The notes: generated from the sequence alone by a model not told the origin. A stretch of 63,680 nt of DNA, filler included, from Asterionella formosa (GCA_002256025.1; 19 parts of 19 records of this genome joined end to end with filler, not necessarily neighbours in it), one strand, 5' to 3'. Shown: positions 3,213 through 62,332, counted from the whole stretch's first letter. Numbers and translations: made by a program.

Positions 3213-4406
3213 GGTTGCAGCCCTCGACTTAACCCTAGTTTGGAGAAAACGTCGCTAGGGTTGTAAAAACGGCATGGAACAGGGAGTTTGCTGCTATGAG
3301 TTCCCATGATGATTTGAGTGTCCATTTGAATATTTGAATTAAATAGGAGTCGGCACCAGATAGACAGAGTTCCATTTTAAACAAACAAAATGATATTTAA
3401 ATAAAAAATCTACGTTGCTGGATGTAGACATAATTTTGTTCCACGCCATAACACGACATAAATCAGGAGTATGCCTAAATGTATACTCATGATATTTTTT
3501 ATCCGTTTTAGATTGAATCTTAGTTGCTGTTTGTAGATTTAATATTATTCTACCCCCAAAAGGCATACCGGTATTACTCTACACTCAAAGGCACATACCA
3601 GTATATAAACCAATGCCGGAGTAACGGTGTACCACCAGGGTACCTGGTACCAGTACTAGAGCAATGGATGATGAAACTAATTACCGGTAGTACTTATTTT
3701 ACCTACCAGCTACCGTTACAGTACATTTAATACATTTGGTTCAAGTATGGCTGGCGTAATTTTACAAGACCGAGAAACTGCAGCCGATCTGGAGCAGGCA
3801 AGCAAATTCAGTTCAACCAATCAGAATATGTGTAGTGACATGGGAACTTACCCTCCTAGAGTCTTTTCGGACAGAGATTTATTCAGCAAAACATACTTAC
3901 GCAAGACTCTAGTAAGTCTACGAGAACGATTTTGCACGTACTAATTCCGATTCCAATATTTTGGCGACTGTTGAAAAAACCGATTGGGTCGACTTTTTGG
4001 AAGAGGATTGCTCTACATCTACGGGGTTTCATGACGATTAAAATAGATAGCCGTGTACCCTATAACGTCGGGAGTTAACTTCTGGAGAGAAGTGGCAGTT
4101 ACGTATCGTAGACTTTTTGAAAAGCTTCGTAGCCCCTTTTTTGACTAGTTTTGCGGTAGTTACGAATCTATGATACATAGCTGCCACTTCTCTCCAGAAA
4201 TGAGGTCCTTACTATATCTGTATAGATCATACCCCTAAGTCTAGCAATGACAGTATCTAAGCATATGCAAAGTGGTCGTAATGGTGAAAGCTAAATTTAT
4301 CTTTAACTATTTTATTTACTTGTACGTGATGTGTGGATTGAGGTACATCATAAAAATATTTTGAAAAACAACGGACCTTGCAATTTGTAACTGCGGGGCC
4401 GCAACC
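3213..4406. mobile_element. Non-autonomous TTAA-targeting element, family B (Kolobok-like)
   Basis: TTAA|GGTTGCAGCCC ... GGGCCGCAACC|TTAA. Further copies lie at ~22095-22925 (inverted) and 35505-35910. Confidence 0.85.
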
Positions 4407-5323
4407 TTAACTCCATAATGAACTTCTCAAGATTCCATAGAAATACTAACCGCGAGAATTAGTACGTACATCATGATAGACAGTACAAAATTATAACTTG
4501 AGGTATTTTCTTGCATTTCGAGATGATGTGCCGTCTCCGAAATTAATATCGCTCAAGTTTTCTCATTTGTTTGTACATTACATAGAATTAATTATCTAGC
4601 AAATTTTATTACGCGAGGCATCGCGGACTCAAAACTGTCGCTACTTTGGTCATATCTTAACAACTGAGCAAACGACGACGAAAACAAGTTCTATCAGCAA
4701 TTTCTAATTTTTGTCGTCAATATCGGTGCAAAAAATTTTATTATTGAATGGTTAACTCGTCTATGGTAGTCTTGATAAATGTACGAAATAGCAATAGTTG
4801 ATTTCCAATAATTTCGTCATGGTCAGGACAAAGTTGCTGTCTCAGCATCCCCCTCCTACGGAACATCGCTCAGTACAAATCAAATTTACTCACCGGTATG
4901 TACGTAGCTATGTGAAACATACCAGTAGTCCTTCGTCTGGATATGAAACAATGCATGCATACACCGGTACCAGGTAGTACTTACCATAGGCAGAGCGGTC
5001 CAGTCCAACATGTGATGGATCTGGTGTACACCTCGTATGATGTCGAGGCATGTCGATAACTTCTTACGTAGAATCGAATACATTCTTATACATCTGATGT
5101 TGTGTCGATTTGGACATCCAGTGCATATTATCGATGATAATACAAAAATTGTAAATAATTCTCGATATTCCAATAGTAAAAAAATAGTCATTCAAAATTT
5201 AGTTAGGAAAATATTCTATCACTGATAGAAATTATTCTCGATTTGCTACGTATTTAGTCCAAAAAAATAATCACGAATTCCCAAAAAAGGCAATTGTGCA
5301 TTTAGAAACACTTTTGTGCAAGG

Positions 5324-5756
5324 ATGGTATTTTCTCAAGAATTTAACTTCAGTCATGATGGTTGTCCTACCTGCCAAGACCGGTTGATTGTAGAGTCATG
5401 TCTGGAGGGATGTGAGGATCGCATCTTCTGCAAATGCTGCGATTTTTGCTGCCTTAAATGTCAGTGCCGATGGGAAAGTCGAAGAGTTGGTGGAGAAGTT
5501 TCTGGGAGGTGAATCCATTCTTACCAGGTTGAAGGATGAAGACATAACGGCATCAAGAGCCTGCAATCTTCTATACAAGTTTTTAGTCCGAGTTTTCTGT
5601 GGTCCATTGGGAAAAGGTGTTCGGATGCAACTTCCTGACTGTTGTTTGAAGGGGGTTCGATCTCTTTTGAAGAACAAGGACCCAAACGAAGTGTACACTG
5701 GTTTCAAACCAACTTCCAAACATTCTAAATTCTCTAAATCTATTAGTGATTTTTGA
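5324..5756 (+). pseudogene. KolX-like / P2X7 C-terminal ballast-like Cys-rich protein, frameshifted near 5475
   Basis: Cys-rich N-part CKCCDFCCLKCQCRW in one frame. The next frame has LYKFLVRVFCGPLGKGVRMQLPDCCLKGVRSL...YTGF, matching the recalled Y..F....G.LG.G.R..LPxC....R....Y.GF ballast signature. Confidence 0.7.
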
Positions 5757-5935
5757 TTTTACGATTTTCATTTATTTCATTAGTAAATCAAGAACTTCAA
5801 TCCACCTACGTATGATGTTTCAAAACCTTCTATAAGTGAGGTGGCATGAATGACAAACATATTTTTATTTTTACATAATCTAACAAATCAACCAGCTATA
5901 AAAAACATCAACACCAACTATTATCAAACAAAATC

Positions 5936-6363
5936 ATGTCACATTCCAGTGGTAGCCGTCTCATTTCCGAAATTGGTGCTGGTGGTCAAGGAGGACAAAA
6001 TATAGCGGCCGATGAAAATCAAAATTGGTGGACCTCTAAGATGCCTTTTTCCCCTACAGCAACAACTTCACCAATTGAACCAGCAATCACATGTCACCAA
6101 TTAAAACATACTCTCAACTGAATGTCAATCATATAATCGACTATAGTACATTGTCGAAATTTCTGCAGGAAGATATGTATTGCAAAAGTTGTGTTAATAA
6201 ATTTGTACAAGAATATAGCAAACAATCACTTCGTGACTATGTAACTTACTTTACGTCAAATAGACAACAAAAGTTGTCCATTGAACAGCAATGTGAAGAT
6301 TTTCTGGAGCCTGAAAGATTGAAAAAAACTTGTGTCAGTGATGTTCTAACTGTGGCTCATTGA
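5936..6363 (+). pseudogene. Probable N-terminal remnant of the Kolobok/Mutator-like transposase
   Basis: Two overlapping ORFs. NHIIDYSTLSKFLQEDMYCKSC resembles the (R/H)IID..L......CxxC start of these transposases. No catalytic core is visible. Confidence 0.4.
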
Positions 6364-7009
6364 TCCAACAAGAGCATTTACAAATTTTTGGTCGACATTG
6401 GTGGTATCCCGCTGAATGCGCAATGTGCTTTTGAATTGCTAGGGAAGGAGGCAATCATTTTGTCTTTGTGAACCCAACAATTGAGCACCTTGGCATGTAC
6501 TCTTGACATAGCATAGCTATATTCAGTTCACTTTTCCATTTTCAATCCTTCTAAGCGACAAGGTTTATCATCATTGGGTGCGTTGAAGCGTCGTTCTTTC
6601 AGTTTTCCTTGTCAAAGTGCAGAAATGATCTTTCATTTCAGGATCATGTGTTACCGGTATGCTTAACAAGGAACCTCTAAACATGATTTCAAATGTATAG
6701 GCTATGTACATATTTACAAAATTTTGAAATCGTATAAATATATATATGCACATAATGTGTATACTATCATCAATTAAGCTTACACATAATTCAAATATAT
6801 ATAATGCATGAGGATATCATTGTTTTTCACAACCTGATGTACTGTTTTTGAATTTTTCCGCATCAATTCTTGTACCTACAAGTAAGTAATTTAATAAAGC
6901 CCCTCAATTAGCGGGTCATACGAAATATTTCATATGGTACAAACCATAAAATATTTACTAGTAGATGAATTGCTCGAATCAATCGTTATGAATTACAGAT
7001 CATACCTCC

Positions 7010-7200
7010 TGGTTAGAAATGATTGCCAATATATAAGATCACAGATAACGATTTTAGCATTTTTAGCTTTTTTGATCTTACTTTTATCATGAAAAAAAAT
7101 TTTACTACAAAAAAATTACATATCATATTTTGGTTAGAAACGATTGCCAATAAATAAGATCACAGATAACAATTTATAGCTTTATTGATCTTACTTTTAA
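7010..7200 (+). repeat. Direct duplication of ~75 bp (7010-7087 and 7130-7200)
   Basis: TGGTTAGAAAYGATTGCCAATAWATAAGATCACAGATAAC...TTGATCTTACTTTTA occurs twice. The second copy ends at the TTAA before the 7201 terminus. Confidence 0.85.
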
Positions 7201-8937
7201 GGTTCCTGCATTTGATCTCCTAGCTCGAGGTAGGGTTAAAAAATAATATTAAGTCAGAGTAGTCAAACATAGACTTCTTACAAGTAAAACGTAAATGTAT
7301 ATCGCTAATCGGAGCTTTCACCAATACACACCCTTTCCATATGCTTAAATATAATCATTTATCAAAGTAGGAGTTTAGTTCAACGCTATATATCGTCAGG
7401 AAATAGGATCTGGCGAGAAACTGCAGAGAGGAACTTCGGTTTTTTCACTATGCTGAAAATAGTGGATTTTATCGGGCCAACTCGATTATTTGGCCTAGTA
7501 AAAAACCGAAGTTCCTTTCTGCAGTTTCTCGCCGAAAGTTAATTTCTGGGGCTATATGAAGATCATGTCTTCTAATCTATAGATTGCTACAGTAGATATG
7601 TACATTTACCCATGTACGACTGTCCTACTCATGCAACATTAATGATTCGAATTCAGATTGACCGGTTGTTGATGTGTGCAGCCAGTGTTGGTATACATGC
7701 AAAAATACATGTATCAATATATACATACATACAATGTTCTCCTTGACGACAAATATTATTCATATTAGATGATAAATTGAATTTATATGATCATTTGATC
7801 GCCATTGTAAGATGCATCACATGAATTAGATGTTTTCTAGCTATTTGCAGACGATGTCAGCACTGCAAGAATCCTTCTGGAGACAAAAAGAAAAGCGACG
7901 AAGTGACGATAGAGCCTATAAAGCACAATTCAAACGAAAGAGGAAACGAAGCGAAAAAATACATGCAGCACGATTTGAAACCGTCAAACAGGAAAGACAA
8001 GACAACAAATCAGGTAAGAATTACTGTTCTGGTGTTGCGCTCAGAAGGGAACATCAGGAAACAAGAAGGAAAGGAACAAATGTCTGCAATCATTGTTGCC
8101 GCAATGATCATGAAAGGAAAAGCAGTGCACTCTGTCCATTCAATTTACCAGTAGGCAAGCAAAGCGCCTGATCATACTGGTATGTGTATGATCAATGATG
8201 ATCAGCTACCTACTGTGAGTATTGTACTGGCCAACACCCACCAAGAAAATGTTAAATGTGCATCCATTGTGCTGGCCAGCTTGGGTTTGCAAGACTGCGC
8301 AAACCAGGCCAATCAATTGTTGGTAAGTAATTGAATTTGACCAATCAAAATATTTATAGTGAAGCGTGGACTTACAATGGAATTTTTTGTACAGGCGATT
8401 GTAGGACGAAAAATTGAATCACAAGACTCCTATTACAATGATGACGTTTCGGTGATTAGCAATTCTGATTCCGACATTTTGGTGACTGTTGAAAAAGCCA
8501 ATATTGTCGAATTTTCGAAAGATGATAGCTCAACATTGGCAGGGTTTGAAGAAGAGTTAAGTACATAGGTAATCTTCATATAGCCCCAGAAGTTAACTTT
8601 CGGCGAGAAACTGCAGAAAGGAACTTAGGTTTGTTTACTAGGCCAAATAAACGAGTTGGCCTGGTAAATCCATTGTTTTCAGCATAGTTTAAAAAACCGA
8701 AGTTCCTTTCTGCAGTTTCTCGCCAGATCCTATATCCTGATGATATATAGCATTGACCTATACCCCTACTTTGATAAATGACTTTAACTAAGCATATGGA
8801 AAGGGTGTGTATCGGTGAAAGCTTCATTAGTGATATACATTTACGTTTTTCTCCTTAGAAGTGTGTGTTTGATTACTCTGACTCAATATTATTATTATTC
8901 AACCCTACCTCGAGTTAGGGGTTCAAATGCAGGAACC
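7201..8937. repeat. Long inverted repeat pair of ~360 bp (7201-7562 / 8573-8937), family A ends flanked by TTAA
   Basis: 7201 GGTTCCTGCATTTGA...CTGGGGCTATATGAAG is the diverged reverse complement of CTTCATATAGCCCCAG...TCAAATGCAGGAACC ending at 8937. Confidence 0.92.
7830..8171 (+). pseudogene. Probable C-terminal remnant of the transposase (basic helix plus zinc knuckle)
   Basis: KRKRKRSEK basic tract, NYCSGVA, then CNHCCRNDHERKSSALCPFN (CxxC...H.R.SS..CP.N). It lies just inside the family A right end. Confidence 0.55.
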
Positions 8938-9623
8938 TTAATTGCATAATGCTAACCGTACATGCGTAATGGTAATTTAAATAGTCTATGAAATCTATCT
9001 ATTTCTGTATATACCCACAGATGTGTTGATGCATGAATGTATTTATGTATGGATATATGAGATTTTCGATGATTTTATTAGCTACGTCAGAATGGACTCA
9101 GCTGAGCGAGGCGGGTGCTGGTTGACCAAAAATGGCTGGAGCGATGCAAATGAAGAACACTACGTACGTGGTATGTAGGAGTACCTGGTATGCATAAATA
9201 TAGCTGGTGTTTGTTATCAACTTCGTACGTGCGGCCAGACAGGGAAGTGAGTGGGAACAAGTCTCCATGATGCTGAATTCATTGCAGTCCTCTTCGCCTG
9301 CCCACAATGCATCACGACAATCATTGACAAACCTCCGAAAGGCCAATTCAACGCATTCTGAGGCATCCAGGAAATTTACGTCGCTCTCGTTTCAGCGCCT
9401 CGTCACCAATCACGAAGATAATCGTCCAAGAGAAAGATTCGACTTTGAAAGGTCCCATTGCGATCATTTTGGCTCGCAGGCAACAGCAGTCTCGTTATCT
9501 CTTTGAATCGCAGAAGAATCGACTTGTCCGACTCAACTGAGCAATCGTAGGCCTTTTGCTCGGTATTAGCGCGAACTTGAAACTACGCAACGCATCCCGT
9601 TCATCACTGATTACTCTGGTCTC

Positions 9624-12600
9624 ATGCAGCCTCCTCATGTGCCCCAAACGCAAGGCGGAAATGGGCAACCAATGCCACCCGGACATAATGCAAATCATCA
9701 CCAGGCACCATTGAGAACTCTGTCGGCTGGGACACATCCCAACGAAAGTGCTCCGTCCCCGTTACCCGGCCAACCTGCCCCCAGACATCCGCCGATGCCC
9801 TCCAACAATGCTCCCCAGGGGCGAGGTAATTTTCCGACTCCTGGCGCTGGTATCCCTGGAGCTAAACGCGATGGCTTCGGTCCTGGATATCCTCCTAGTC
9901 AGTTAAGGCGAGGACCGCCGCCTAATATGGGCGACCGCCGCCCTGCAGGCCCCTCCCCGCCTGCACAAGCTCCTCGTTCTGCGGTGCCTCCACAAGGACA
10001 GAACTACCCACCAAATCCTACTTATACGGGGTCACAACCACAAACTAGCAACACAGGATTGCCCCCTCAGGGACCACCTCAGCAAACGCAACCGCAACCG
10101 CATCAAGGGCAACCTAGACAAACAATGCGCCCTGGAGTTCCTCCTCCCCAGGATCAGCGTAGGCTTTCTGGAAACGTAATGCATTCTGGTAATCGACAAG
10201 CTCATCCGCAAGGGCCTCCTGTTTCTCAAGGACCTCCACCCTCTGGGACACATCCAGGAAATCGACCTGCTCAGGGACCCCCGTTTCGACCAGGACCTCC
10301 CGCTGTGATGCCTCCACAGGGAAGTGGCGGGATGAGAGAGCTACGAGTGGAAGACGCCTTGGTATATTTGGACGACGTTAAGAGAGAGTTTGGAGATCGT
10401 CCAAAGATTTACAATGAATTTCTTGAAATTATGAAAAATTTTAAGTCGCAAGAAGTGGATACCCCTGGAGTGATTGATCGTGTTTCACGTCTCTTTCGCG
10501 GCTACAACAACTTGATTTTGGGTTTTAACAAGTTTTTACCAGATGGATACAAGATCTCATTGCAAGATTTAGAACGTAGGGAAGCAGAACTTCAGCGTCA
10601 AGCGCAGCAGCAACAGGCAAGTGCATCGGGATATTTTCAGGGCCAGACAGGAGCGCGACCATCACCGCCAAACCCTGTGGCTACCCATTTGATGCAACAG
10701 CAACAACCACGCCGTGACGGCCCTCCACAGCAAGTTACTTCCCATTTACAGAATCACGGACGCCCCCCAGCTTCGACTGCACAAGGGCCTCCGCAAGGAT
10801 ACGCACCAAAGCGACCTCCACCTGGTCAAGCTCCGCCTCAAGCAGCAATAGGCCGTGGTGCTGGAAATGGAAAGGCCATTGCTAATGGTATTCCGCCGCC
10901 GCAGCAGCAGATACCACGCCAAGGACCGCCACCACAGCAAATCCATCGGGGGCCAGCTCCTCCAACTCATCCTCCTCAACATGTTCAAGTGCAGGCCCAA
11001 CCCCAGCACCAAGCAGTTGAGTTCGATCATGCCATTTCTTATGTAACGAATATCAAAAAAAGATTTGCAGATGACCCTAGCACCTATCACCAATTTCTGG
11101 AAATATTGCACACGTACCAGAAGGAACAACGGGGAATCAAGGAAGTGTTGGAACAGGTTGCTTCTTTGTTTGCCGACCATCCTGACTTGTTGAAAGAGTT
11201 CACCTTCTTTCTCCCAGATGCCGTTCAAGAGCAGGCCAAAGAACGCCTTCATCGTGCCGCAGCTGAGTCAGAATCCCGCCAAGCGTTGGCGGCGCAGCAA
11301 CAACAGCAGGGGTATACAGGGCGTCAGATGCCCCCGGCTTGGCATAGCGGACCAAGAGGCCTGGACCCAAATCGCACTCAACAAATACGAAAACTATCTC
11401 AACAAAAATTCATTGATATGACTGGTCAGAAAGTTGAAGTTCAGGAGGAGTCTACCCTTTCTCCCCGTCAGTCGCCAGTGGTTAAAAAGAGACCAAGCAG
11501 TCCTGGTTCGGGAGGAACCGGCCAGCCATCGTCTCAACCAGAAACATCTGTCTATAATTCTGCTGTTGAAAGACAATTTTTTGATTCGGTGAAAGAGGCC
11601 TTGACGACTTACAGTCGTGATGGAGGACAGGCATGGGCTGAATTCATTAAGTGCCTTGACATGTATGCACAAGAGTTGCTGTCGAAGAACGAAATGTTGA
11701 GCTTTGTTGAACAGCTGCTAGGAAATCGCAGTGCAGAACTTTTTGAAGAATTCAAACGCATTCTAGCGGCTGCTGGATCGCCAAGTGGATCTGCTCCTTC
11801 GATGGAAGATTCATGGTACTCTGTGCCATTGTCTGATATTGACTTCTTTCGCTGTCGCCAATGTACACCATCATATCGTGCATTACCTCGAGATTACCCT
11901 GCCCCTCCTTGTAGTGAAAGAAGCGACGACGAAGCTAAGGTGCTGAACAATATTTGGGTATCGCTTCCAAAGGGCAGCGAGGAATCCTATACCTTCCGAC
12001 ATATGCGACGAAATCACTATGAGGAAATGCTGTTTAGATGCGAAGACGAGCGATTTGAAATCGATCAAGTGATTGACAGCAACGCAGCCACTTTGTGCCG
12101 GTTGGAGCCGATTGCTGAGGAGATCACTCAGCTTGCCCAAGAAGAGGAGATGCAATCAGATTTTATGTCAGGCATCGTGGGCAAGGTGACTGGGGAATGT
12201 GGAATGGGTGGTCTTAGATTCCAGTACACCTTTGAACCCAAGATCCTTGGCGTCGTTCATAGAAATGCCATCGCTCGGTTGTACGGAGATTCTGGACAAG
12301 AGATGTTAGAAATGATTGTCAAGAACCCTACTGCAGCAATTCCTGCTGTGGTTGCGCGCTTGCGACAAAAGGACCGAGAATGGAAAGTTACACGAGGTAA
12401 GCTGAATCGTCATTGGAAAGAGTTGGCGGAAGCAAACTACTTCAAGAGTCTTGACCATCGCAGTCTGACTTGGCGAACCATTGACAAGCGGGCGACCAGT
12501 ACACGTACCCTCATTGCGGAAATTAAGGATCGAGCAGCACACGGCGGCAAGGAGGGTGAAGCAGCCATTGTCGCTCGACGAGAGAAGGCCAAGGAAGAAC

Positions 12601-13955
12601 ATGGCACTTTTTATGAGGTGACTATGGGCAAAGATCTTAAAGACGTTTTGAGCTCGAATCTCCCGAAGCCACATGAAACGTTATTTACTCCACATATGAG
12701 TTTGATGTATGAAAACAACTCTTGGGCACAACAGGATGCTTATCGCATTCTCGCATTTGCTTTGGAAAGGGGCGTTATTTCTCCACAGGATAAGGAAAGA
12801 TGTCATCGTCTTTGGCGTGAATTTTTGGGCCCTTGGTTTGGCTTGACACTTAACTGGATGCAGCGGCCTGCGGTGAGCTACCAAGAGTCCATCGCCATAA
12901 TATATGACGGTATGGGTGAGTCAAGTGCAGTCATGAGCTCCACTGCCGAGGACTCAGTTAACACCGTGAGTGGATTAGAAGACGAAGATGATAGCGTTTC
13001 TGGTGATGATCACGATCTAGGCAATAATGTAGTCACAGAGGAACTCCGCGAAAGGACCGCACGATCCAGCAGTAGTGCTCTCATGGACTATCATCCGTTG
13101 CCAACAGGCGCGATGGTGTCCACTGTTTACGGAGAGGGCAGGATAGTTCAATTCCGTCGAGCAGACAAGAAATATGTGGTTGACATGCCGTTTGGTGCAA
13201 GGGCCTTCCTTCATCCTAATGCTGTTCTTTGCACCATCCTTTCGGCTCCAAGAGATCCTTACACCAACCAACTACGAGCCGACGATACAACAACTTTACA
13301 GCACAAGGACGATGTGCTAGCAATTGGGACCCAGTCGCTATATCTCTTTTTTCGACTTCACCAAATCCTTATCCGTCGCCTAAATATTGCAAAGAGAGCA
13401 GCATATGAAGTTACCAAGGATAAGACTTTGCAAACTCTTGTTGAACAAATGCATTCATTACCTGGCGAGGACGTTGGTCGCAAGCGGTATGATGCGTTCT
13501 TGAGTTTGGTATATGGCCTTGTTGATGGAGGTGGACAGCAAAGTCACCACGCCGCTGCAGAAGGTGGCAAGTACGAGGATCGCGTACGATGCCTGCTTGG
13601 TCATAGGGCTTACGAGCTTGCCACTATGGATAAGTTGCTGTCGCATATCCTCAAAAATCTTCAAAACATGGCCAATGACGAGACGATGTATAATCTAGTT
13701 CAATTGTTCCGTCGCCATCGTGATCAAGGAAGCTTTAGACCCGAGGCTTTAAGGCAAGAGGCAGCACATTATTCAGACGGCGAAAACATGATAGCATTTC
13801 AACGTTGTATAATGCATGACAGTGACAAGAGCGTCATTCACATGGAGTTCTTGGGTGTTATTGATGGTGGTGCTGAGCGTCAGGAAGAGGTTGATGAAGT
13901 CGCAGACATAAGTGCAGAACCTACCGCAAAACGACCGAAACGCCAGAGAGAGTAA
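9624..13955 (+). CDS. SIN3: Paired amphipathic helix protein Sin3 (histone deacetylase corepressor scaffold)
   Basis: 1443-aa uninterrupted ORF. PAH1 LRVEDALVYLDDVKREF...LILGFNKFLP, PAH2 VEFDHAISYVTNIKKRF...LLKEFTFFLP, PAH3 ERQFFDSVKEAL, HID CTPSYRALP...YEEMLFRCEDERFEID...KSLDHRS, C-terminal LYLFFRLHQIL/YEDRVR/TMDKL. P/Q/G-rich N-terminus. Confidence 0.97.
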   Translation: MQPPHVPQTQGGNGQPMPPGHNANHHQAPLRTLSAGTHPNESAPSPLPGQPAPRHPPMPSNNAPQGRGNFPTPGAGIPGAKRDGFGPGYPPSQLRRGPPPNMGDRRPAGPSPPAQAPRSAVPPQGQNYPPNPTYTGSQPQTSNTGLPPQGPPQQTQPQPHQGQPRQTMRPGVPPPQDQRRLSGNVMHSGNRQAHPQGPPVSQGPPPSGTHPGNRPAQGPPFRPGPPAVMPPQGSGGMRELRVEDALVYLDDVKREFGDRPKIYNEFLEIMKNFKSQEVDTPGVIDRVSRLFRGYNNLILGFNKFLPDGYKISLQDLERREAELQRQAQQQQASASGYFQGQTGARPSPPNPVATHLMQQQQPRRDGPPQQVTSHLQNHGRPPASTAQGPPQGYAPKRPPPGQAPPQAAIGRGAGNGKAIANGIPPPQQQIPRQGPPPQQIHRGPAPPTHPPQHVQVQAQPQHQAVEFDHAISYVTNIKKRFADDPSTYHQFLEILHTYQKEQRGIKEVLEQVASLFADHPDLLKEFTFFLPDAVQEQAKERLHRAAAESESRQALAAQQQQQGYTGRQMPPAWHSGPRGLDPNRTQQIRKLSQQKFIDMTGQKVEVQEESTLSPRQSPVVKKRPSSPGSGGTGQPSSQPETSVYNSAVERQFFDSVKEALTTYSRDGGQAWAEFIKCLDMYAQELLSKNEMLSFVEQLLGNRSAELFEEFKRILAAAGSPSGSAPSMEDSWYSVPLSDIDFFRCRQCTPSYRALPRDYPAPPCSERSDDEAKVLNNIWVSLPKGSEESYTFRHMRRNHYEEMLFRCEDERFEIDQVIDSNAATLCRLEPIAEEITQLAQEEEMQSDFMSGIVGKVTGECGMGGLRFQYTFEPKILGVVHRNAIARLYGDSGQEMLEMIVKNPTAAIPAVVARLRQKDREWKVTRGKLNRHWKELAEANYFKSLDHRSLTWRTIDKRATSTRTLIAEIKDRAAHGGKEGEAAIVARREKAKEEHGTFYEVTMGKDLKDVLSSNLPKPHETLFTPHMSLMYENNSWAQQDAYRILAFALERGVISPQDKERCHRLWREFLGPWFGLTLNWMQRPAVSYQESIAIIYDGMGESSAVMSSTAEDSVNTVSGLEDEDDSVSGDDHDLGNNVVTEELRERTARSSSSALMDYHPLPTGAMVSTVYGEGRIVQFRRADKKYVVDMPFGARAFLHPNAVLCTILSAPRDPYTNQLRADDTTTLQHKDDVLAIGTQSLYLFFRLHQILIRRLNIAKRAAYEVTKDKTLQTLVEQMHSLPGEDVGRKRYDAFLSLVYGLVDGGGQQSHHAAAEGGKYEDRVRCLLGHRAYELATMDKLLSHILKNLQNMANDETMYNLVQLFRRHRDQGSFRPEALRQEAAHYSDGENMIAFQRCIMHDSDKSVIHMEFLGVIDGGAERQEEVDEVADISAEPTAKRPKRQRE

Positions 13956-17734: not shown

Positions 17735-17962
17735 AAGATGATGATCGTTCTAGCGGGGGAAGGGGGAATGATAGTATAGTGACAAGCTATGCTGTGTAAT
17801 ACATGAACAATGCCAACAGCAGATAATGATATAGTGGAATACATAACGGCGTTGCTCAAGAGAAGTATTGCTTTTCGAATACAACGCAGGGTGCCAGCGA
17901 TGCAGAGGTGGTAATAGGGAGACCTGGTACCTGGGACCAGGGGGTAGTACCAGTACCAGGTA

Positions 17963-48839: not shown

Positions 48840-48939
48840 NNNNNNNNNNNNNNNNNNNNNNNNNNNNNNNNNNNNNNNNNNNNTTAATTAATTAANNNNN
48901 NNNNNNNNNNNNNNNNNNNNNNNNNNNNNNNNNNNNNNN

Positions 48940-51539: not shown

Positions 51540-51639
51540 NNNNNNNNNNNNNNNNNNNNNNNNNNNNNNNNNNNNNNNNNNNNTTAATTAATTAANNNNN
51601 NNNNNNNNNNNNNNNNNNNNNNNNNNNNNNNNNNNNNNN

Positions 51640-51860
51640 AACACTCGTACGTAGACGAAATTTCGAAAAGTCAAATGAATTATTTGAAACATCAACTAAT
51701 TCAGTCTCGCGTTCAAAATTCATTGTGAAAACTTCACATGAAACAGTTAAAACTTCACATGAAACCGTTAAAAGTAATCTTTTTTACGTGAAGAGTGGCA
51801 TTAATGCATGTGAAGTACCACATAATTAACACTCATACGTAGACGAAATTTCGAAAAGTG
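51640..51860. repeat. Short direct repeats (~30 bp x2 and ~21 bp x2)
   Basis: AACACTCRTACGTAGACGAAATTTCGAAAAGT at 51640 and 51828, and tandem AAAACTTCACATGAAACMGTT at ~51728-51770. Confidence 0.8.
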
Positions 51861-51878
51861 GCGTATTTCGCGTCTTAG

Positions 51879-52889
51879 ATGATGCTCTTACCTGCTGCTC
51901 GTCATGTACACATTGTCCCTGGTCTACACAATTGCTCTTTATTGAGCATTGGACAACTATGTGATTCTGGCTACAAGGTACTCTTCACCAAACTACACAT
52001 GTCTGTCTTATCCGATGGTCATTGCATCCTTCAGGGCCATCGCTCCACCACCACTCGATTATGGCATGTCACCACCACCTCAATTGATCCACCATTGCCT
52101 ACCCCTACCCACTACGCTGCTGCCGCCATTGGCAGTCCCAATGCACCAGCACTTGTTGCTTTTGCCCATGCGGCCCTCTTTTCTCCTGTTCTCTCCACTT
52201 TGGAAAGCGCATTACTCCATGGGTATCTTGCCAATTTTCCAGGTCTGACCTTAGCTACACTACGCAAACATCCCCCTCATTCCATCGCAACCATCAAAGG
52301 CCACCTCGATCAAACACGTCAAAACGTACGATCCACACGTGTGCCCCCAACTATTATTGAGCCTGAACTTGCATCCATTCCTACTACCAATGTGCTGGGT
52401 GATGCTGATTTCCACCCTGAGTGTCTTGCAACCCCTACCCATATGTGTTTTGCGTCCATTATTGCACCCACAGGCCAAATTTACACTGATCAAACCGGAA
52501 AATTCATACTCCCCTCCAGCACTGGAAACAACTACATTATGATTTTATATGATTATGACAGCAACTACATTTTCGTTCAGCCCTTCCATAACCGAATCGC
52601 TTCCTGCCTCCTTGCAGCATATAAAGCATTACATCAACGTTTGTGCAAAGCTGGCCTACGTCCCAAACTTCAACGCCTTGACAATGAGTGTTCTACACTC
52701 CTCAAAGACTTCTTGGACGCCGAAGCTATTGACTTTCAGTTGGTCCCGCCGGCTGTCCATCGTCGCAATGCCGCTGAACGTGCAATTCGCACCTTTCAAA
52801 ATCATTTCATTGCCGGTCTATGCAGTGTCGACAAACACTTTCCTCTCCACTTGTGGGACCAACTACTAGTTCAAGCCGAACTTACTCTT
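51879..52889 (+). mobile_element. Ty1/Copia pol fragment: protease tail, pre-integrase region and integrase core
   Basis: SLLSIGQLCDSG, AHAALFSPVLSTL, KGHLDQTRQNVRST, GQIYTDQTGKF, RLDNECS and HRRNAAERAIRTFQNHFIAGL (D-D-E). The frame is open. Confidence 0.93.
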
Positions 52890-52989
52890 NNNNNNNNNNN
52901 NNNNNNNNNNNNNNNNNNNNNNNNNNNNNNNNNTTAATTAATTAANNNNNNNNNNNNNNNNNNNNNNNNNNNNNNNNNNNNNNNNNNNN

Positions 52990-53525
52990 CCAAAGTAAAA
53001 TGCACAGTTTCTAGCAAAAAAGAGCCACACCATATCACCCCGGTAGGCAGCGACGAAGCCAGCGCCACCCAGTAGCGATGCATGGACAAGATTTTGAAGA
53101 ACATGAATTTGTGCTTCCAAAATATCAGCCCATGGAGGTTTAGCTGTCATGTTGCTGTATTTGCTGTTGTCCTGGTTTTTCTTGTTGAACGAAGTGGTAG
53201 GCTCATGCTGCAGTAACAGAACGATCGACACCGCAGCCATGAGGCATGCGGTAGCAATCACAGAGTAGAGCCCAATTCCCTTGATTCCATTTCGGACAGT
53301 AATCGAAAAGATGTCATTAAAATCATCGCCAGGTTTGACAGGCCTCTTGTTCTTCAATGATTCCGTATCGTCAACATCGACAGACAATGACGCGTCGCTT
53401 AACAATACATCCTGGTGATCTGGCTCAATTTCGACATGTCTTACCGCCAAGTTGGAAGAAGACAACGTGTCGTTGGCTGGCAAAGGAGGGATTACATCGT
53501 TCATTTGCATGGATATCATCGACAC
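52990..53525 (-). CDS. 5' part of a putative membrane protein, truncated by contig edge
   Basis: ORF open from ATG to the linker, with a hydrophilic N-terminus and hydrophobic segments GIGLYSVIATACLMAAVSIVLLL and LVHASLLGGAGFVAAY. Confidence 0.65.
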
Positions 53526-53760
53526 AGCCGGTCAATGTCGTCAACTAAGCACTGTACATGTGTATGTATTATAAAATGAGATACCGGCATGAACAACGGC
53601 ATACGGTATGGAAGCGACAATACATCGCTTTCACATGAACCTCGTTTCTACCGATACATGAGTTTACGTAAATCCAGGACCAACCAACCACTATGTGTAC
53701 CGGTATTACCGATACTTCGGGAGCTGTATCATCTCCTCTTTTGTTGGACTCGGACAGCAA

Positions 53761-54015
53761 CCAGCAAGTTGCGGTCATTTGGCTTAAATAAGCAATTTAA
53801 TATAGGATAAAGATAGCTAAATGTTTTTTCATATCACCATGCATGAAACATAGACTACCAGGTACCAGGTACAGTACCTGGTACCAGGTACCAATACCTG
53901 TGCAAGTTGCGGTAATTTTGCTGAAACTAAAGATTTAGCTATCTTTATCCCAGATTCAGCTATCTTTATCCAAGATTAAAATGTTAGCTTAAGCAAAATG
54001 ACCGCAACTTGCTGG
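53761..54015. mobile_element. Two mini-MITE copies of the CCWG-end family (partial 53761-53827, complete 53897-54015) separated by a GGTACC array
   Basis: CCAGCAAGTTGCGGTCATTTGGCTT... and TA|CCTGTGCAAGTTGCGGTAATTTTGCT...AGCAAAATGACCGCAACTTGCTGG. Confidence 0.85.
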
Positions 54016-55687
54016 CACCAGGTACCTGTTACCAGTTAGTAACGGTATGCTATGTATAATCACGGTCTATACCGAGATTTGCTAAGAAATAAATATAGGG
54101 TTCGAGGTAATTAACGGACAATGACGCACGATATTCTGCGCTGAATTGTGCTCCACCATAACCTCTCCCTCCATCAGCGATCCATCCTAGGCATCTATCT
54201 GCCTCTCCTAACCACCATGATGTTTGGTCATTTCTTGTNNNNNNNNNNNNNNNNNNNNNNNNNNNNNNNNNNNNNNNNNNNNTTAATTAATTAANNNNNN
54301 NNNNNNNNNNNNNNNNNNNNNNNNNNNNNNNNNNNNNNTAGCGAAAGGTATGAATATAGCAAGAGATAACTGAAAACTATAAGTTGTACACTTGTGCATG
54401 TGTATACAAATCATTTATTACCCTCTTCGAATAAAATAGAGAGTCATCGAAAAGGGGCCCCCAAGATGGAGTTGTTGTGCCCGGCACATGATCTGTCATC
54501 GTTCCACCCAGCGTCTTTTTACAGGGTTACTTACAGGTGTCATTCAAGACAGTTCAAGTTTGGAACATCGGGTCATTCATATTGATAAATATAGCCGCGT
54601 ACAAAATCTGATACTCACAGTATTGCACTCATGTTAATTGAGAATATAATCGGTATTCTAAAACCCCCATGCTGTGGGCACGAGAACCCCAAGGAAGTCC
54701 AGGAGTCATAGACTTTTATAAAACGATTCGATAGGCATTCTGCACGTTTTCACAAGGTGTACACCGAGGTACTAACTACTTCATGCATGAACAAGCCAAT
54801 CATGCAGTTTTCTCAAAATATTGCTAACAAGCATATTTATTACATACGGTACTCATTATGTTGTTGATGTACGAAAATGTCGTGTTAACGTTGGATCGTT
54901 ACCAGAATACTGTTGAAGTAAAATCGTTAATGGTATTTAATGTTGCACGCTTGATATTGCATAGAGAGTTTCTCCGATTCACTTAAAACTAGCGAGGTAG
55001 ACATGCCTGGATTGTCCGGTAAAAGACTGTTTGTAATCTGGAAAAGATAAAGACTAATGATCTCATTTACCGCACCTACCCACAAAAGGCCTACAATATA
55101 CTACATAGAAAACATATACGGTATTCAAATTGGTCTGATAAGTGTGAATGAACACAACGAGAAGCATGATCGAGTTTCTCTGATTTTGCAACTTTACCTG
55201 TAGGATCAGGTTCTCCCCAAGCATCCTATTATACAACCGTTAGACTGTAGCCAAGTACTGTAGGCCTGATGAAGTGAGAAAGAACAAAATATAAACAAAG
55301 CAACAAAGCAGAAGAAAGTTCAATTGAGAAAGGTGATAGTAATGCAGTAAACGATAATAATACCACTTATGAAACCCGCGGCTGAAGCTTCACAAAATTT
55401 TCAATTAATAAATATAAATTTTCAACAACTACTCTGTACCGGTATATAAATACCTTATAGCTTTATGCATTAAAGTTGTGAAACCAGGATGAGTCAAAAA
55501 TAAGGATTCAATGTAATGGTCAATGCTAGACAAACTTCAATACACTCCTTCAACATTCATTACTTTGAGTATATTTCAAACATCTGTNNNNNNNNNNNNN
55601 NNNNNNNNNNNNNNNNNNNNNNNNNNNNNNNTTAATTAATTAANNNNNNNNNNNNNNNNNNNNNNNNNNNNNNNNNNNNNNNNNNNN

Positions 55688-56936
55688 ACTATAATATGAT
55701 TTGTGATATGGATTGATGCATATCACATACCGGTATCCTCAACAACCAGCCATCACGTTCATTGTTGTGTCGTTTTTCCTTGTTATAGCTATATATATAT
55801 GCCGGCATGTGTATTGTGTAAACACTACGCTAGTGGAACATGCATATCACACTGCTGTGCTCTGTTCAACAATTACTACACTCGGTTACCATCACACCAG
55901 CTGCACCTCCACAAGCGCCGCAAAACGTTCCGCGTTTCCCTTCCACTGTTTTACTTCATAGTCTGCTGGCCCTTTGACAACTTTCCAAATGGCATTTCAT
56001 GGATTCCATGCAAAGGATCAGTCAAACAAGAAACGTGACTTACTTCCATTGTTTACACTACACGACTTCATGTTTTCGGAAAAGAAGATGAAGAAACTTA
56101 TGAAATCAATCGATGATTCCTTTGAATACACTCAAAGATCAGATGAATTTGAACAGATTCATAATAATTCAGAAAAATAATGAAGTATGCCGATACAATA
56201 GTGGCAGAGATTGAAAAGAAGGAAAGATTGCTTTCGAAGAGGAAACCCAAACAGTTGTTCTTTGCAGATGAAGACTCTATTCCTACAGAGTCACAGTTCC
56301 ATCCAGTGTCGTATTTGCTCCTCATTCTCCTGAAATCAGAAAAAAAAAAGAAGAACTCAGTGATTCTCATTCATTTGATGAAAAAATTATGCGATGAATG
56401 AAATACCGGCGAAAATGTGAGAGACATCACTTCTGAAGTAGAAATGGTGGAAAAGTTGCAAAACCAAGAAATATGTCTCACTATCCGTCCAGAACATCAA
56501 GATGAACATCATGAAAGCAGAGCAGAGAATCTATTGCATTTCTAAAAGAAAAGATCATATTCAAGAAAAAGTCCAAGCTAGATCAAGACCTCTAATTCAA
56601 GAAGATCAATGCAGACAGAGATGTGATGACCATGCTGGCTAAGGCAGTTGATGCACTGAGTCGGGAACGAAGTTTGAAAAAAAAATTGAATCTTTTTCCA
56701 AATCATACATGAAAGAAAAAGAATTTCTCTGTAAAATCATCGAAAACCATCCCGAAGGCAGCTAGCCTACTTTAGTGAAGAGTCAGCATGTGAAATGTGT
56801 AGAGTTACAATGCCAAAGCAAACTGCATTTTCCTTGAGTTTGCCGAAAACTCATGGACAACTATAATTGTGGAAAGATTTGTACACAGGTACCCCACAAG
56901 AAATAAGCAAATACGCCTCCGTCTCTGTATTTTATG
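55688..56936 (+). repeat. Dispersed repeat family C, copy 3, with the longest decayed ORF remnant
   Basis: Matches 19780-20326 and 45209-45815. Frameshifted K/E-rich coding remnant MFSEKKMKKLMKSIDDSF.../MKYADTIVAEIEKKERLLSKRKPKQLFF. Confidence 0.9.
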
Positions 56937-58387
56937 NNNNNNNNNNNNNNNNNNNNNNNNNNNNNNNNNNNNNNNNNNNNTTAATTAATTAANNNNNNNN
57001 NNNNNNNNNNNNNNNNNNNNNNNNNNNNNNNNNNNNTCGTGTACACCACATGTTAATTGCTTTGTTGTAGTTGCAGGATTAGAAGGATCCGATATCGAAA
57101 TTGATAAAGTTACAATCGCATCATGGCATCCATTGGCTTTGTTTGCCATGTGTTTTTTGGTCTGGGAGCAAAACACATACACTAACATTCTTTTATTTTT
57201 TACCGGTGCGTACTGCCTTCTACATAGGTAATTATTTACAAAGAAGCAAAGAGCGCGCAGCAGAGAGTGAAATGAACAGGTGGATGACGATCTGTTACCT
57301 TTTTCTTCTGTTGCCGCTTGATGGCTTGTGTCTGATTAGGACAAAGCATCACACTGGTACCTGGTGCTTGTCGTCCATTTGTATAGTTAGTAGAGTACGT
57401 CAGTACCAGTACTACCGGTATACCAACTGGCTGGATTACCGGTACTGGTACCTGGTACCAGGTATTCCTGGTACGCACTACAGCGATGCTGATATACAAC
57501 ATCATAATCCATCACCGGTACCAGGGTACCACTATTTGCATGGAAGAAAAACGTCAGCCAACGTACGTACGTCGACCATTCGTCGCAGATGGCAGAAACC
57601 ACGCAGCCATCATCATTCTTCGCCTCCATGCTGCATCCTCATGATGATGCTGGAGGGGAAACAGCCGAAGGCAGCCTGCGTACCTGGTAGGAGCACAGGT
57701 CGTTGATTTTATACTGCAGGCAACCTTCGAGCCATTTTTTGGCATCCAACAGTATACCAGTTATACTTTTATACTAATGTCTGGCAGTATGATACTATTG
57801 GGGAGTCCCACCAGTTATTATTACAGTTATAGTTACTTTATTCCAATCCAACAGTAGCAGTGGTGGGAACTTATCATTTCAAATTTGTGTGTTTATGCTG
57901 CAACATGAAATGATGACCATTCCAAGGGGGGTATGTTGCTTAAAAGAGTGATTAGAGTATATATATAGTAGACTTTGTAAAGATAGAGAGTAGAGCGAGA
58001 ACACAAGACAGGCATTCACAGCCAAACAGACAGAATCTACGTCATGATAGGACAGTGATTCATAACACAAAGGTTGCACCATGTGAATGTAGCAAATTTA
58101 AAATTGGCAACTATGTTTGAAGAAGTGTTTGGGATTTTCGATTTTCACTTATGGCGATCTCGAGCAAAATGCAGATGCGCACAGCAGGAGGACCCATTTT
58201 TCTTCGAACCATTTATTCTCAACATATGTAAAAAGTACAATATAACAGTAGAACAACGGCAACTTGCGTTCAAATAAGGAATGCGNNNNNNNNNNNNNNN
58301 NNNNNNNNNNNNNNNNNNNNNNNNNNNNNTTAATTAATTAANNNNNNNNNNNNNNNNNNNNNNNNNNNNNNNNNNNNNNNNNNNNTC

Positions 58388-58567
58388 GATCAGAGAAAGG
58401 CAAATATTGGAGCTATCAGGCGTAATGCGTCTTTAACGGACTCGGAAGATTTAGAGATGGTTGACCAGCAAGATTCAGGACCGAATGAAGGCGCCATCGA
58501 AGGTGACGAATTTGCACCTTTGACAATTGGCACCCCTTCAAAATCCAAGACTATCAATGTAGTGTAA
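58388..58567 (+). CDS. Possible 3' end of an unknown gene
   Basis: The frame is open from the contig start for 59 codons (DQRKANIGAIRRNASLTDSEDLEMV...TINVV*) with gene-like composition. Confidence 0.4.
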   Translation, partial: DQRKANIGAIRRNASLTDSEDLEMVDQQDSGPNEGAIEGDEFAPLTIGTPSKSKTINVV

Positions 58568-59328
58568 AATAACGAAGACTACCAAAGGACTTGAAATTCC
58601 TTAGAAAGAATATGTTTTACGAAAAGGAAGTCGTGTCAATCAGCGTCCACATTTCTCAGTCGCTGCATGGTGAGTGCCGATCAATGGTGTGGTTGGTTGA
58701 CAAAGCCCAATTACCCGCAGTCCGGCAAATTTGTTAGGATTTGGATGGAATCAGCAATATGGATTTTTTAAATCAAACAATGACTGTATTTCATCCTCCT
58801 TCTGCATCGAATGCTCATACATATGACACAAAAGCTAATAGTGCGTGTGAGTGAAACTATGAAATAGACTCAATAGAAAGCATGTATTATACAGCTTTCT
58901 TTTTGAAAAGGTTAAGAATCGTCAATATAGATAGCTTATCCTCATGTTGATGTCATTTATATAACATAGCAGTTAATGGACTCGCCCTCAATTTAAACTT
59001 GATATTAACTTTTATTTGATACTGCCATCATTAAAGATACAGTAAAGCAAAGAGCTTATCCTACAGAAAACGCAGATGTAACCTTGAGTAAGTAATACAC
59101 ACTGCAACATGATGTACAAACTAAAGAAGATCTAGCCATCGTGTGATGCAACGCATATTGCACGCAACTGGAGCTCTCTACGAATATCCCATGGAGTGTT
59201 CTTCAAGTAACCATGAGCATATCCACACTACCGGTACTATGTTACGATCAACCAATAGAACCAGAGTATACACACCGGTCAAGCAAATGTACAACGAATA
59301 ATACATGGACCTTGCACCAATGATTAAC

Positions 59329-59634
59329 TCAGCACTGCCCTGTCGGGAAACAGCACGAGAATATGTTCTTTTTTTCGGGACCTGGAAGGATTTCAACAGG
59401 ATGCTTCGTACTGTCGTCTGACAAGAGATCAACCAGTTCTGGAGCTGCTCCATGTATTGATTGATGATCTTGCGCTACACTGGATTCTATAGGCGACACA
59501 GCAATGTGTTTTCTCGCTTCATCCTCGTTCACTAGCATGTTTTTTGACATAGCCATCAACAATGCTTCCGAACCTTTGCCACCACTATGACTCCTTAGCA
59601 TTTCTGCAGCCTTGGTTGGGTCCTTTTCAAAGCA
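59329..59634 (-). CDS. 3' end of an unknown gene ending in a Cys cluster
   Basis: The frame is open from the contig edge (AFEKDPTKAAEMLRSH...) to KKNIFSCCFPTGQC*. Confidence 0.55.
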   Translation of the reverse strand, partial: CFEKDPTKAAEMLRSHSGGKGSEALLMAMSKNMLVNEDEARKHIAVSPIESSVAQDHQSIHGAAPELVDLLSDDSTKHPVEILPGPEKKNIFSCCFPTGQC

Positions 59635-59734
59635 NNNNNNNNNNNNNNNNNNNNNNNNNNNNNNNNNNNNNNNNNNNNTTAATTAATTAANNNNNNNNNN
59701 NNNNNNNNNNNNNNNNNNNNNNNNNNNNNNNNNN

Positions 59735-60858
59735 CGGCGGTAAAACCGGATGGGTTTGAGTATTACGAAATGATTCTTGTATATGTTGATGACATTCTTT
59801 GCATTTCAGCGCAGCCTAGAGCGACTATGAGCGGGATACAGTCGACCTTCAGATTGAAGGACGATAAAGTCGAGAAGCCGGAAAATTACCTGGGAGCCCA
59901 GGTAATGCAGAAAATAGTCGGCGGAGTTGAGTGTTGGGCCATGACTTCTGAGCAGTATGTCAAGGCGGCCATCGCCAACGTAGAGTTCAAACTCGACGAG
60001 TCGGGTCAGCGGCTTCCAACGAGGTGCACTACCCCATTGCAGGGGAATTATAGACCGGAACTGGATATTTCTGCCGAACTCAAGATTGAAGGCGTGAGAT
60101 ACTACCAGGAATTGATCGGCGTGCTCCGCTGGGCAGTGGAGCTTGGACGAATAGACATTGCTTTGGAAGTTTCTATGTTATCTACTCACCTAGCGTTGCC
60201 GAGGAGCGGACACTTACAACAGGTATATCACATGTTCGGATATTTGAAAGCAAAACCCAAGAGGATGTTGATCTTTGATCCGACACACCCCGATATAAAC
60301 GAGTCCAGGTTTGTTAAATGCGATTGGCACGACTTTTACAGGGGAGCGCAGGAGTCTATTCCAGGGGACGCACCCGAGCCCAGAGGTAATGTTGTAACTA
60401 CTCACTGTTTTGTGGATGCGGATCATGCAGGGAATCGGGTGACGAGGCGCTCGCAGACCGGGATACTGATTTTTGCGAATCGGGCTCCAATTATATGGTA
60501 CAGTAAGCGACAGAACACTGTCGAGACATCGACGTTTGGTAGCGAATTTGTGGCTTTGAAGATCTCGGTCGAACTGATCGAGGCATTGAGGTATAAGCTG
60601 AGAATGTTTGGAATCCCAATCGATGGACCAACTAACGTTTTCTGCGACAACGAGGCGGTGACGAAGAACACGATTCATCCAGAATCGACTTTGAAAAAGA
60701 AACATAATGCGATAGCGTATCACAGAGCGAGAGAAGCTGTGGCGGCAGGGATGATTCGGGTAACGAAGGAAGATGGAAAGACCAATTTGGCTGATGTGCT
60801 GACGAAGCCATTACCCCAAATTACACGAGAGTATTTGTGCGACAAGTTCATGTATTGA
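59735..60858 (+). mobile_element. Ty1/Copia pol 3' part (RT + RNase H), intact reading frame
   Basis: LVYVDDIL, YQELIGVLRWAVELGRID, FVDADHAG..TRRSQTG, ETSTFGSEF, FCDNEAV, KKKHNAIAYHRAREA and NLADVLTKPL. A different lineage from 1-1529. Confidence 0.96.
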
Positions 60859-61083
60859 TAGCTGTTGGATCACAGTGGGTCGAAGATTGAAGCCAAGGTT
60901 CATCGTGATGTCACAACCTATGACACCGGTTACCTCCTGGGCACGCAATGACGTGTGGCACCGAATCCAGGTCGATGTTTAGTNNNNNNNNNNNNNNNNN
61001 NNNNNNNNNNNNNNNNNNNNNNNNNNNTTAATTAATTAANNNNNNNNNNNNNNNNNNNNNNNNNNNNNNNNNNNNNNNNNNNN

Positions 61084-61345
61084 ATCATACAATCCTAAAA
61101 CTATGATGATTTACTGTCCCACTGTAATTGCAACAGTCATGAACATATGGTGTTCTATTTGTTTTTAGTTTTACGATCATTTGATCCTAAAACTATGATG
61201 ATTTACTGTCCCAATGTAATTACAACAGTCATAAACATATGGTGTTCTTTTGGTTTTTAATTTCATGATCATACGATCCTAAAAATATGATGATTTACTG
61301 TCCCACTGCAGTAGCAACAGTCCTGAACATCTGGTGTTCTGTTGC
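61084..61345. repeat. Tandem repeat, ~92-bp unit, 3 copies
   Basis: ATCCTAAAAMTATGATGATTTACTGTCCCA.TG.A.T..CAACAGTC.T.AACAT.TGGTGTTCT occurs three times head to tail. Confidence 0.93.
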
Positions 61346-62332
61346 TAGTTTACTACTCCGACTACCCCCAGTATATCACTTACTACCTGCTACTGGTACT
61401 CTGTATATATATATGGTATATTGTTATTGTCATATGATGTACCGGTACACATGAGGAGCTCCCGACCAAAAAAGGGGCTTAAACAATTTGCTACCAAAAC
61501 CCTGGCGGCTATTTAACGGTCTAAATAATTAGTTTCAACGGATGTAGAAAATATCGATGCAAACAAATTTCAGAAACAGTTCCGGTACACGTAGTCGTGG
61601 AAAACAATGGACATATAGTGCATTGAGTATTTTCGAATTATGTATATGCGAGTATGATCATCTCAACCATATCAGATGTTCCATGTCGAGAGCGCGTTTG
61701 AATTTTATAAATGTACAACACTTAATATATATATATATTTACAAATTTTATTTCTATATTCATGGCATATATATATTTTTGAAATCGTTCTGTCATGTTA
61801 ACAAACAATGCCTGCTGCTTCATGAAAAGATACGTCGTAGTAAAGCACATTAAGAGAAAGAAAATTTTCACAATACATAACGAAAAACATTGTGACTTCG
61901 ACACATTGCGCATTCGAAGGATGGAGAATGTTTAAGGTAATGAAGCCATCAATGTGGTAGCTACTTGGATGACAATCGTTGGGAGGCAGGACAACAACAA
62001 ATTGTTAACTAAACGCAGCCACATTTCCTTTTTTCTCAGTTGATTAAACAGCTCGTTTCGCTTGTTGGGGAGCACCAATGTAAAACAAAACCAAATTGCG
62101 TAAGTGCTCTTGTCGCTCGTTGGACCTATTCACTTCTGTTGGAACAAAGCTGACAAAACGTTTACCTTCTCTCAAAGTTAAGATGACAAAAATGTACCGG
62201 TAAGTTTTATTCAACAACATTGGATACCCGAAACTTACTTATTCAAGAATTTACTGACAAGTTACTATTACAGACTTATGCATCAGTTGCATTGATTTGT
62301 GGTAAGTGAAGCAAGAGGATACGATGGAATTG
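61345..62332 (+). repeat. Dispersed repeat family D, copy 2
   Basis: Colinear with 40840-41870. Confidence 0.93.

Follow-up and report, generated by a model that had tools for sequence, protein, structure and literature searches.

We analysed a 63,680-base stretch of DNA from Asterionella formosa (GCA_002256025.1), referred to below as the window, and found that its non-coding DNA is strikingly rich in the palindrome TACCGGTA and in the related word TACCWGGTA. These CC..GG words are likely to be excision footprints of a TA-targeting cut-and-paste element, whose visible member is a miniature inverted-repeat transposable element (MITE) of ~96 bp. This reading builds on the excess of the words, their match to the tips of the MITE, the TA present at empty sites, the turnover of units in near-identical copies, and the association of the words with MITE ends. 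An earlier note on this DNA had read a wider set of TA-duplicating words as the scars of transposon excision. The CCGG and CCWGG words bear this out, and TACTA, TAGTA and TAGCTA do not, since they stand near background and the indels that involve them look like generic microhomology indels.

The window consists of 19 contigs (two of ~20.3 kb and 17 of 1,248-1,250 bp) and is not one locus. The contigs are joined by 18 identical linkers, N44-TTAATTAATTAA-N44, at 20327-20426, at 40740-40839 and then every ~1350 bases to 62432. The repeat copies that the earlier note compared therefore sit on different contigs, and its span of 3213-62000 is not a single locus.

To count the words, we used 100 dinucleotide-preserving shuffles of the window as the expectation. 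We observed 37 occurrences of TACCGGTA compared with 0.29 +/- 0.54 expected, and 21 occurrences of TACCWGGTA compared with 0.27 +/- 0.47 expected. When all words of the form D-core-D were ranked (D being any dinucleotide, with a core of 1-6 nt), TACCGGTA came first, and the next ranks were mostly taken by its rotations and by TACCWGGTA words. The 58 sites are distributed over positions 2686..63028, and their surrounding sequences are unrelated, so that a single larger repeat present in many copies is not their source. The open reading frames (ORFs) of Sin3 and AP-4 epsilon contain none of the 58. Five fall in other ORFs of at least 200 amino acids (aa), all without a Pfam match, and the density outside long ORFs is ~1.2 per kb (58 sites in ~47 kb).

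The excess is specific to the TA flank: ATCCGGAT, AACCGGTT, TTCCGGAA, CACCGGTG, GACCGGTC, TAGGCCTA, TACGCGTA and TAGCGCTA all occurred at expectation. Between two TAs, cores made of C and G were in excess at a length of four only (45 vs 6.3 expected), and 37 of these 45 were TACCGGTA. A general enrichment of C/G cores of 1-5 nt between TAs, which the earlier note had expected of a Markov check, was thus not seen in the window. Its claim of words strikingly frequent in non-coding DNA holds for TACCGGTA and TACCWGGTA and fails for the others. The apparent second over-represented word, TTAATTAA, was rejected as an artefact, because 36 of its 39 occurrences come from the 18 contig linkers. TACTA (72 vs 63) and TAGTA (68 vs 54) were at the order-2 expectation (1.1-1.25x), and together with TACCTA and TAGGTA, which were also at expectation, they were rejected as scars. 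One-base C/G cores showed a 1.2-1.4x excess with nearly all other flanking dinucleotides too.

Some further words are moderately frequent. TACGTA (24 vs 10.9) and TAGCTA (23 vs 10.3) stand ~2.2x above the order-2 expectation across the window; the former could be a 1+1 scar (C+G), and the latter is incompatible with the order of the tips. TACCAGTA and TACTGGTA were found 10 and 9 times, respectively, compared with ~0.7 (order 1) or ~2 (order 3) expected. They may be asymmetric "4+0" scars or CpG-transition products of TACCGGTA, and a C/T difference of the CpG-transition kind is present between two of the metagenome loci described below (L008 and L015).

The MITE and the words at its ends

The earlier note had also pointed to a transposon family flanked by TA with ends CCWG...CWGG, and this family does exist in the window. 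It is ~96 bp long, with ends TA|CC(A/T)GCAAGTTGCGGT(A/C)ATTTTGCT ... (A/T)GG|TA, and its tips are of the form CCWGCAAGTTGCGG. Both the window and 23 loci (41.8 kb) carry its terminal inverted repeats of ~24 nt, CCWGCAAGTTGCGGTMATTTTGCT; the loci were obtained by scanning marine metagenome contigs with a 21-letter pattern of the MITE repeat. A scan of viral contigs for the inverted-repeat pattern gave 0 matches. The element is short, contains no ORF, has inverted ends and a target duplication, and is present in many copies, as is characteristic of MITEs.

The tips CC(A/T)...(A/T)GG predict the over-represented words exactly. TA, CC, GG and TA joined together give TACCGGTA, and the same junction with the wobble base kept gives TACCAGGTA or TACCTGGTA. 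In the ~104 kb of window and loci, we identified 45 MITE ends, 32 of them unique by flank. TA followed by CC... stands directly before the conserved core in 16 of these 32 ends, and the tips are CCA (5), CCT (4), CCTGT (3), CCAA (2), CCTT (1) and CCG (1). The number of unique complete copies is ten. The core ends are 90 nt apart in six of them (~96 bp once the tips are included) and 107-249 nt apart in the other four, and ~11-12 of the 20 ends are flanked by TA, the flanks being read by eye.

We then compared the surroundings of the ends with background DNA. A footprint word lies within the outer 50 nt of 16/32 unique MITE ends, compared with 237/4071 background windows (5.8%), which represents an eight- to ninefold enrichment. 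For example, the chain TA-CCAGG-TA-CCAGG-TA-CAG-TA-CCTGG-TA-CCAGG-TA-CCAA-TA (53856..53896) runs straight into a MITE at 53897. This complete copy, TA|CCTGT-GCAAGTTGCGGTAATTTTGCT ... AGCAAAATGACCGCAACTTGC-TGG|CA (53895..54017, + strand), has TA as its left flank and CA as its right flank. Likewise, footprint words TACCAGTACCAGGTA (17948-17962) are located just outside the copy TA|CCT-GGAAGTTGCGGT ... ACAGCAACTTGC-TGT|TA (17961..18099, +), which has TA on both sides. Double units, TACCGGTACCGGTA, occur at 24280..24293 and 24745-24758.

Other copies in the window are less regular. A half MITE at 53761..53853 (+) retains one terminal inverted repeat, CCA-GCAAGTTGCGGTCATTTGGCT, and the inner part, and its flank is AA, not TA. 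The copy TA|CCA-GCAAGTTGCGGTCATTTTGCT ... GTCGCAACTTGC-AGCCAACTGG|TA (24848..24954, +) has a degenerate right tip. A single MITE-type end, TA|CCA-GCAAGTTGCGGTAATTTTGCT, was found after TAGGTAGGTA (35340..35376, +; ~35348-35350), and a diverged, inward-facing end, ...ACCGCCATTTGC-AGG|TA (39003..39022, -), is located 3.67 kb from it. The ends at 35350 and 39022 face each other, and their membership in one element is not shown; the Pfam scan of ORFs of at least 45 aa between them (35300-39100) gave no transposase signal.

The same 3.67 kb (35348-39022) holds 11 of the 37 TACCGGTA sites, or ~3 per kb, severalfold above the density elsewhere. Its sole gene-like feature is an orphan ORF of 268 aa (37642-38445, -), whose relatives are three unnamed proteins only, at ~90% identity.

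As a control, we examined a second TA-flanked element, located at 7198-8941. It has inverted arms of ~370 nt (7197-7563 and 8572-8941, 89% identical) and tips AGG..CCT (AGGTTCCTGCATTTGA), and a related arm was found at 22990-23483. Its predicted scars (TAAGCTTA and similar) showed no excess in the window. A match of the MITE hairpin to the MIR7504 microRNA precursor (L004 806-917, L016 1563-1674) was rejected, scoring 36.8 against an 83-bit threshold, and is probably a hairpin likeness only.

Turnover of CCGG and CCWGG units

The metagenome loci come from several separate assemblies and two sources. We dropped eight near-identical loci (L004, L006, L007, L011, L014, L015, L021, L023), leaving a non-redundant set of 15 loci (26.2 kb). 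Here, TACCGGTA was found 16 times and TACCWGGTA 50 times, each compared with 0.2-0.7 expected. TACTA and TAGTA were at expectation, and so were CCGG palindromes flanked by bases other than TA and GGCC, CGCG and GCGC placed between TAs. The commonest word differs between the two data sets, being TACCGGTA in the window and TACCWGGTA in the loci.

Several loci are variants of one another, with 93-99.9% identity. Alignments of near-identical loci contain 36 gaps. Of these, 27 span 3 bp or more, and ~10 of the 27 represent CCGGTA or CCWGGTA units gained or lost. In the alignment of L008, L023 and L015 (1261 ungapped columns), we found 7 unit-type events compared with 4 other indels, which are 5-bp duplications or similar. 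Plain point differences make up ~28 of the alignment's 45 variable columns; an edge, a complex event and a shifted unit account for the rest.

Individual units in these loci were gained or lost precisely at TA. In one stretch, L008 and L023 have CCGGTA behind the first of two neighbouring TAs and L015 has it behind the second, and the sequences are identical once the unit is removed. This indicates two separate insertions. A 13-bp double unit is found within the MITE of L015 only, and the TA there is intact in all other copies of the arm. Another unit is private to L008, with L023 and L015 agreeing in its absence. Across window and loci, the short form was exactly TA in all nine informative comparisons of scar and no scar (9/9). 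L015 1-69 and L023 1-47 (reverse strand) are the 5' end of eukaryotic small-subunit ribosomal RNA, which places the MITE and its dense scar chains in the ribosomal DNA (rDNA) spacer upstream of 18S.

In the window, aligned paralogous copies have TA at 3256-3257 and TACCGGTA at 35547..35554. This is one of five indel pairs quoted by the earlier note, all of which were recovered at the places it gave. The others are TAGTA vs TA (3910 vs 22440), TA vs TAGTA/TACTA (3833 vs 22514), TA vs TAGCTA (41480 vs 61958), and a pair that also carries a substitution (~4230 vs ~22118). We found a further pair, with TACCGGTA at 3682..3689 and TA in the paralogue at ~22658 (reverse strand). Most of the quoted pairs come from one repeat family of at least 1 kb, with 75-79% identity and of undefined type (3208-4257, 22093-22972 in reverse, and 35500-35751).

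To evaluate the indel spectrum, we compared the window's repeat copies with one another, which gave 48 gaps of 3 bp or more. XY-core-XY against XY was found for AT (5), TA (4) and CT (3). Such indels occur with many dinucleotides, and therefore TA is not special except with the CCGG core, contrary to what the earlier note had supposed. Two contigs (40840-41858 and 61353-62330, 82% identical) differ by eight four-base indels. In 7/8 of these, the first two inserted bases repeat the next two, and seven different dinucleotides are involved. This pattern is the generic microhomology indel signature and has no relation to TA. The small-core "TA-duplicating" examples are ordinary microhomology indels, and only the CC..GG cores are special.

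Proposed source of the words

We propose that the words would arise in the following way. Insertion would duplicate the target TA. On excision, a transposase would cut the 5' strand two or three bases within each tip, leaving each flank with TA and a 3' overhang of CC or CCW. End-joining would then give TA-CC-GG-TA, or TA-CC-W-GG-TA where the terminal W bases overlap. TACCGGTA could alternatively arise from loss of W or from a two-base stagger, as is known for Tc1/Tc3. One cycle of insertion and excision would turn a single TA into two TAs 6-7 bp apart, and repeat visits, probably with some slippage, would produce chains of units, often adjoining a resident element. We infer the cut positions, the repair route and the identity of the transposase, and also that this MITE family, rather than a same-tipped relative, made most of the scars. 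Judged by the words themselves, the scar spectrum appears compatible with both 2-nt and 3-nt cuts inside the element. A review of Sleeping Beauty states that transposases of this kind begin with a nick placed three nucleotides inside the element, that 3' overhangs stay on the donor flanks and are built into footprints by non-homologous end joining (NHEJ), and that integration duplicates TA (PMC7827188).

Insertion at TA with its duplication, terminal inverted repeats, and a footprint of TA, tip bases and TA are traits of the IS630-Tc1-mariner superfamily that we observed here. The TA flanks, inverted ends and footprint shape thus suggest that the element may be of Tc1/mariner type. Pogo elements also use TA. 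In L016, which carries the MITE, we found a frameshifted relic of a pogo-type DDE_1 domain (PF03184) at 2552-3060, in two collinear pieces (E 1.5e-4 and 4.7e-3; scores 21.8 and 17.0 compared with a Pfam cut-off of 22). The relic lies within a 987-bp stretch that is missing from L006, which is otherwise 99% identical to L016, and the junctions of this stretch show neither TA nor an inverted repeat. It is not bounded by the MITE inverted repeats and is not tied to the MITE. A tblastn search of the window with the two pieces gave no match, so the relic has no counterpart there.

Several observations weigh against the footprint reading. Pfam scans gave no match to a Tc1/mariner/pogo transposase among 10 + 47 + 35 ORFs of the window, and none above the cut-off among 32 ORFs of the loci. 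These scans took window ORFs of at least 100 aa, the ORFs of 35300-39100 mentioned above and locus ORFs of at least 110 aa, with 171 window ORFs of 62-99 aa falling outside them; ~100 kb was searched in this way, and a MITE need not adjoin its partner. Only about half of the MITE ends have TA as their flank. Neither the window nor the loci contained a trio of empty TA, element and footprint at one site, or a position occupied by the MITE in one copy and by a bare TA or a scar in its counterpart. If both 3-nt overhangs survived joining, TACCWWGGTA would be expected, yet this word is rare: its four forms together occur once in the window, and TACCATGGTA, the form counted in the loci, is absent there. 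Neighbouring 7-bp units were identical 17 times and different 5 times, which indicates that slippage contributes to the arrays. The portion of the A. formosa genome examined is 62 kb. Finally, the loci were picked for carrying the MITE, which makes the sample non-random, and rDNA spacer variants, which are multi-copy DNA and not necessarily alleles, account for about half of them. The share of unit-type indels is therefore biased upward, and the comparison is one of multi-copy DNA.

The missing autonomous partner and the missing TA flanks could point to another maker, and the change of leading word from the window to the loci could mean more than one source. The scars would then be genuine and would belong to another CC..GG-tipped family, or to a transposase-derived TA-cutting nuclease retained by the host, with the MITE as a bystander that shares its sites. 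However, the tips of the MITE match the words at every base, down to the A/T wobble, and the words cluster at its ends. We therefore consider another maker unlikely.

Slippage or unequal exchange in a GGTACC-rich mini- or microsatellite could also multiply the words, in this case with no transposition. Perfect arrays such as (TACCTGG)4 in L008, a 36-bp tandem repeat of GGTACCAGGGTACC-type words at 27533..27610, and 7-bp indels that fall within arrays are in line with it. So is the 17:5 ratio of identical to different neighbours, which fits repeat visits by one element in one orientation as well. However, 59 of the 67 runs in the window are single units with unrelated flanks, and units occur at a lone TA where no repeat stood before (L015 and position 35547 are examples). 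CCGG, CCAGG, CCTGG and CTGG are mixed in one chain, TA-CCGG-TA-CTGG-TA-CCTGG-TA-CCAGG-TA (57437..57464), and a mixed double unit, TACCTGGTACCGGTA, is found at 26843..26857. The identity of the word core with the element tips is likewise not expected from slippage, and we regard it as quite improbable as the source of the words.

A selected signal was considered as well, since TACCGGTA is a perfect palindrome, is common in non-coding DNA and occurs in neither of the two verified genes; it could be a protein-binding or methylation site that is frequent through its function. Selection does not explain why CCGGTA is present or absent exactly at TA in near-identical copies, nor does it explain the chains that share TAs, the sites inside the MITE and rDNA spacers, or the match to the tips. 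This makes a selected signal very unlikely. An assembly or library artefact, as might be suspected from a window that is a patchwork of short contigs, is hardly credible, because several separate metagenome assemblies, from two sources, contain both the words and the MITE, and the sites lie within contig interiors.

The excision footprints proposed here have known counterparts. Short, palindromic MITEs derived from Tc1/mariner are known from animals, and the Stowaway-like elements of plants are of the same derivation. The diatom MITE is similar in being ~100 bp long, non-coding, flanked by TA and multi-copy, with little beyond its two inverted ends; it differs in that its host is a diatom and that copies are found in rDNA spacers. 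Its inverted repeat may resemble those of mariner-type elements. Excision scars are usually rare curiosities of experiments. In comparison with Tc1/mariner footprints, the diatom scars are dense, with TACCGGTA the most over-represented D-core-D word and ~1.2 sites per kb outside long ORFs, and they form chains through common TAs and adjoin element ends. The footprints of Sleeping Beauty and mariner share with the diatom scars the TA duplication and a scar of TA, a few tip bases and TA, and the likeness is based on Sleeping Beauty-type staggered cuts with 3' overhangs and NHEJ joining; the overlap in Sleeping Beauty is three bases, whereas the commonest diatom scar retains 2+2 bases (PMC7827188).

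We think it probable that a new TA-targeting MITE family of a pennate diatom left these words as excision footprints, at an unusual density, the mechanism itself being known. In the literature covered, which includes few subscription journals, we found neither such scars nor the MITE repeat described for diatoms; this is weak evidence of novelty. The scars are numerous enough to vie with point differences among near-identical copies, and they can be read straight from k-mer counts and so provide a sequence-only gauge of past cut-and-paste activity in diatoms. They also help explain why haplotypes or ribosomal spacer variants diverge through small indels, accounting for a large share of these in the spacers examined, and suggest a possible path by which transposon scars become short tandem arrays. 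The MITE and the scar words could mark this lineage in marine metagenomes.

In one spacer examined, unit insertions reached ~1/4 of the count of point differences. More speculatively, one MITE family might make scars the leading ongoing source of small insertions. Each scar would place a new TA in the favoured GGTA/TACC setting and let elements land again beside their own scars, the resulting trails would seed 7-bp TACCWGG arrays, and the ACCGGT/CCWGG word would spread through spacers and promoters. We hold this extension only tentatively. If it is true, the spread palindromic word could be co-opted for binding or methylation.

Genes and other mobile-element remnants

The ORFs of the window and their Pfam matches indicate a eukaryotic host with long intronless genes. 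Two of these genes were verified. The Sin3 co-repressor gene is located at 9624-13955 (+), and the AP-4 epsilon adaptin gene at 14537-17734 (-). The closest named relatives of the latter are from pennate and other diatoms, with 51-67% identity.

Debris of other mobile elements was also found. A fragment of a Plavaka-type transposase lies at 50290-50688 (E 1.4e-5, slightly under the Pfam cut-off), and a weak fragment of a Copia-type reverse transcriptase (RVT_2) is located on a different contig, at 178-837. In addition, an armadillo-repeat ORF (47631-48887) is made of tandem units of 129 bp (43 aa) and extends past the edge of its 1250-bp contig.

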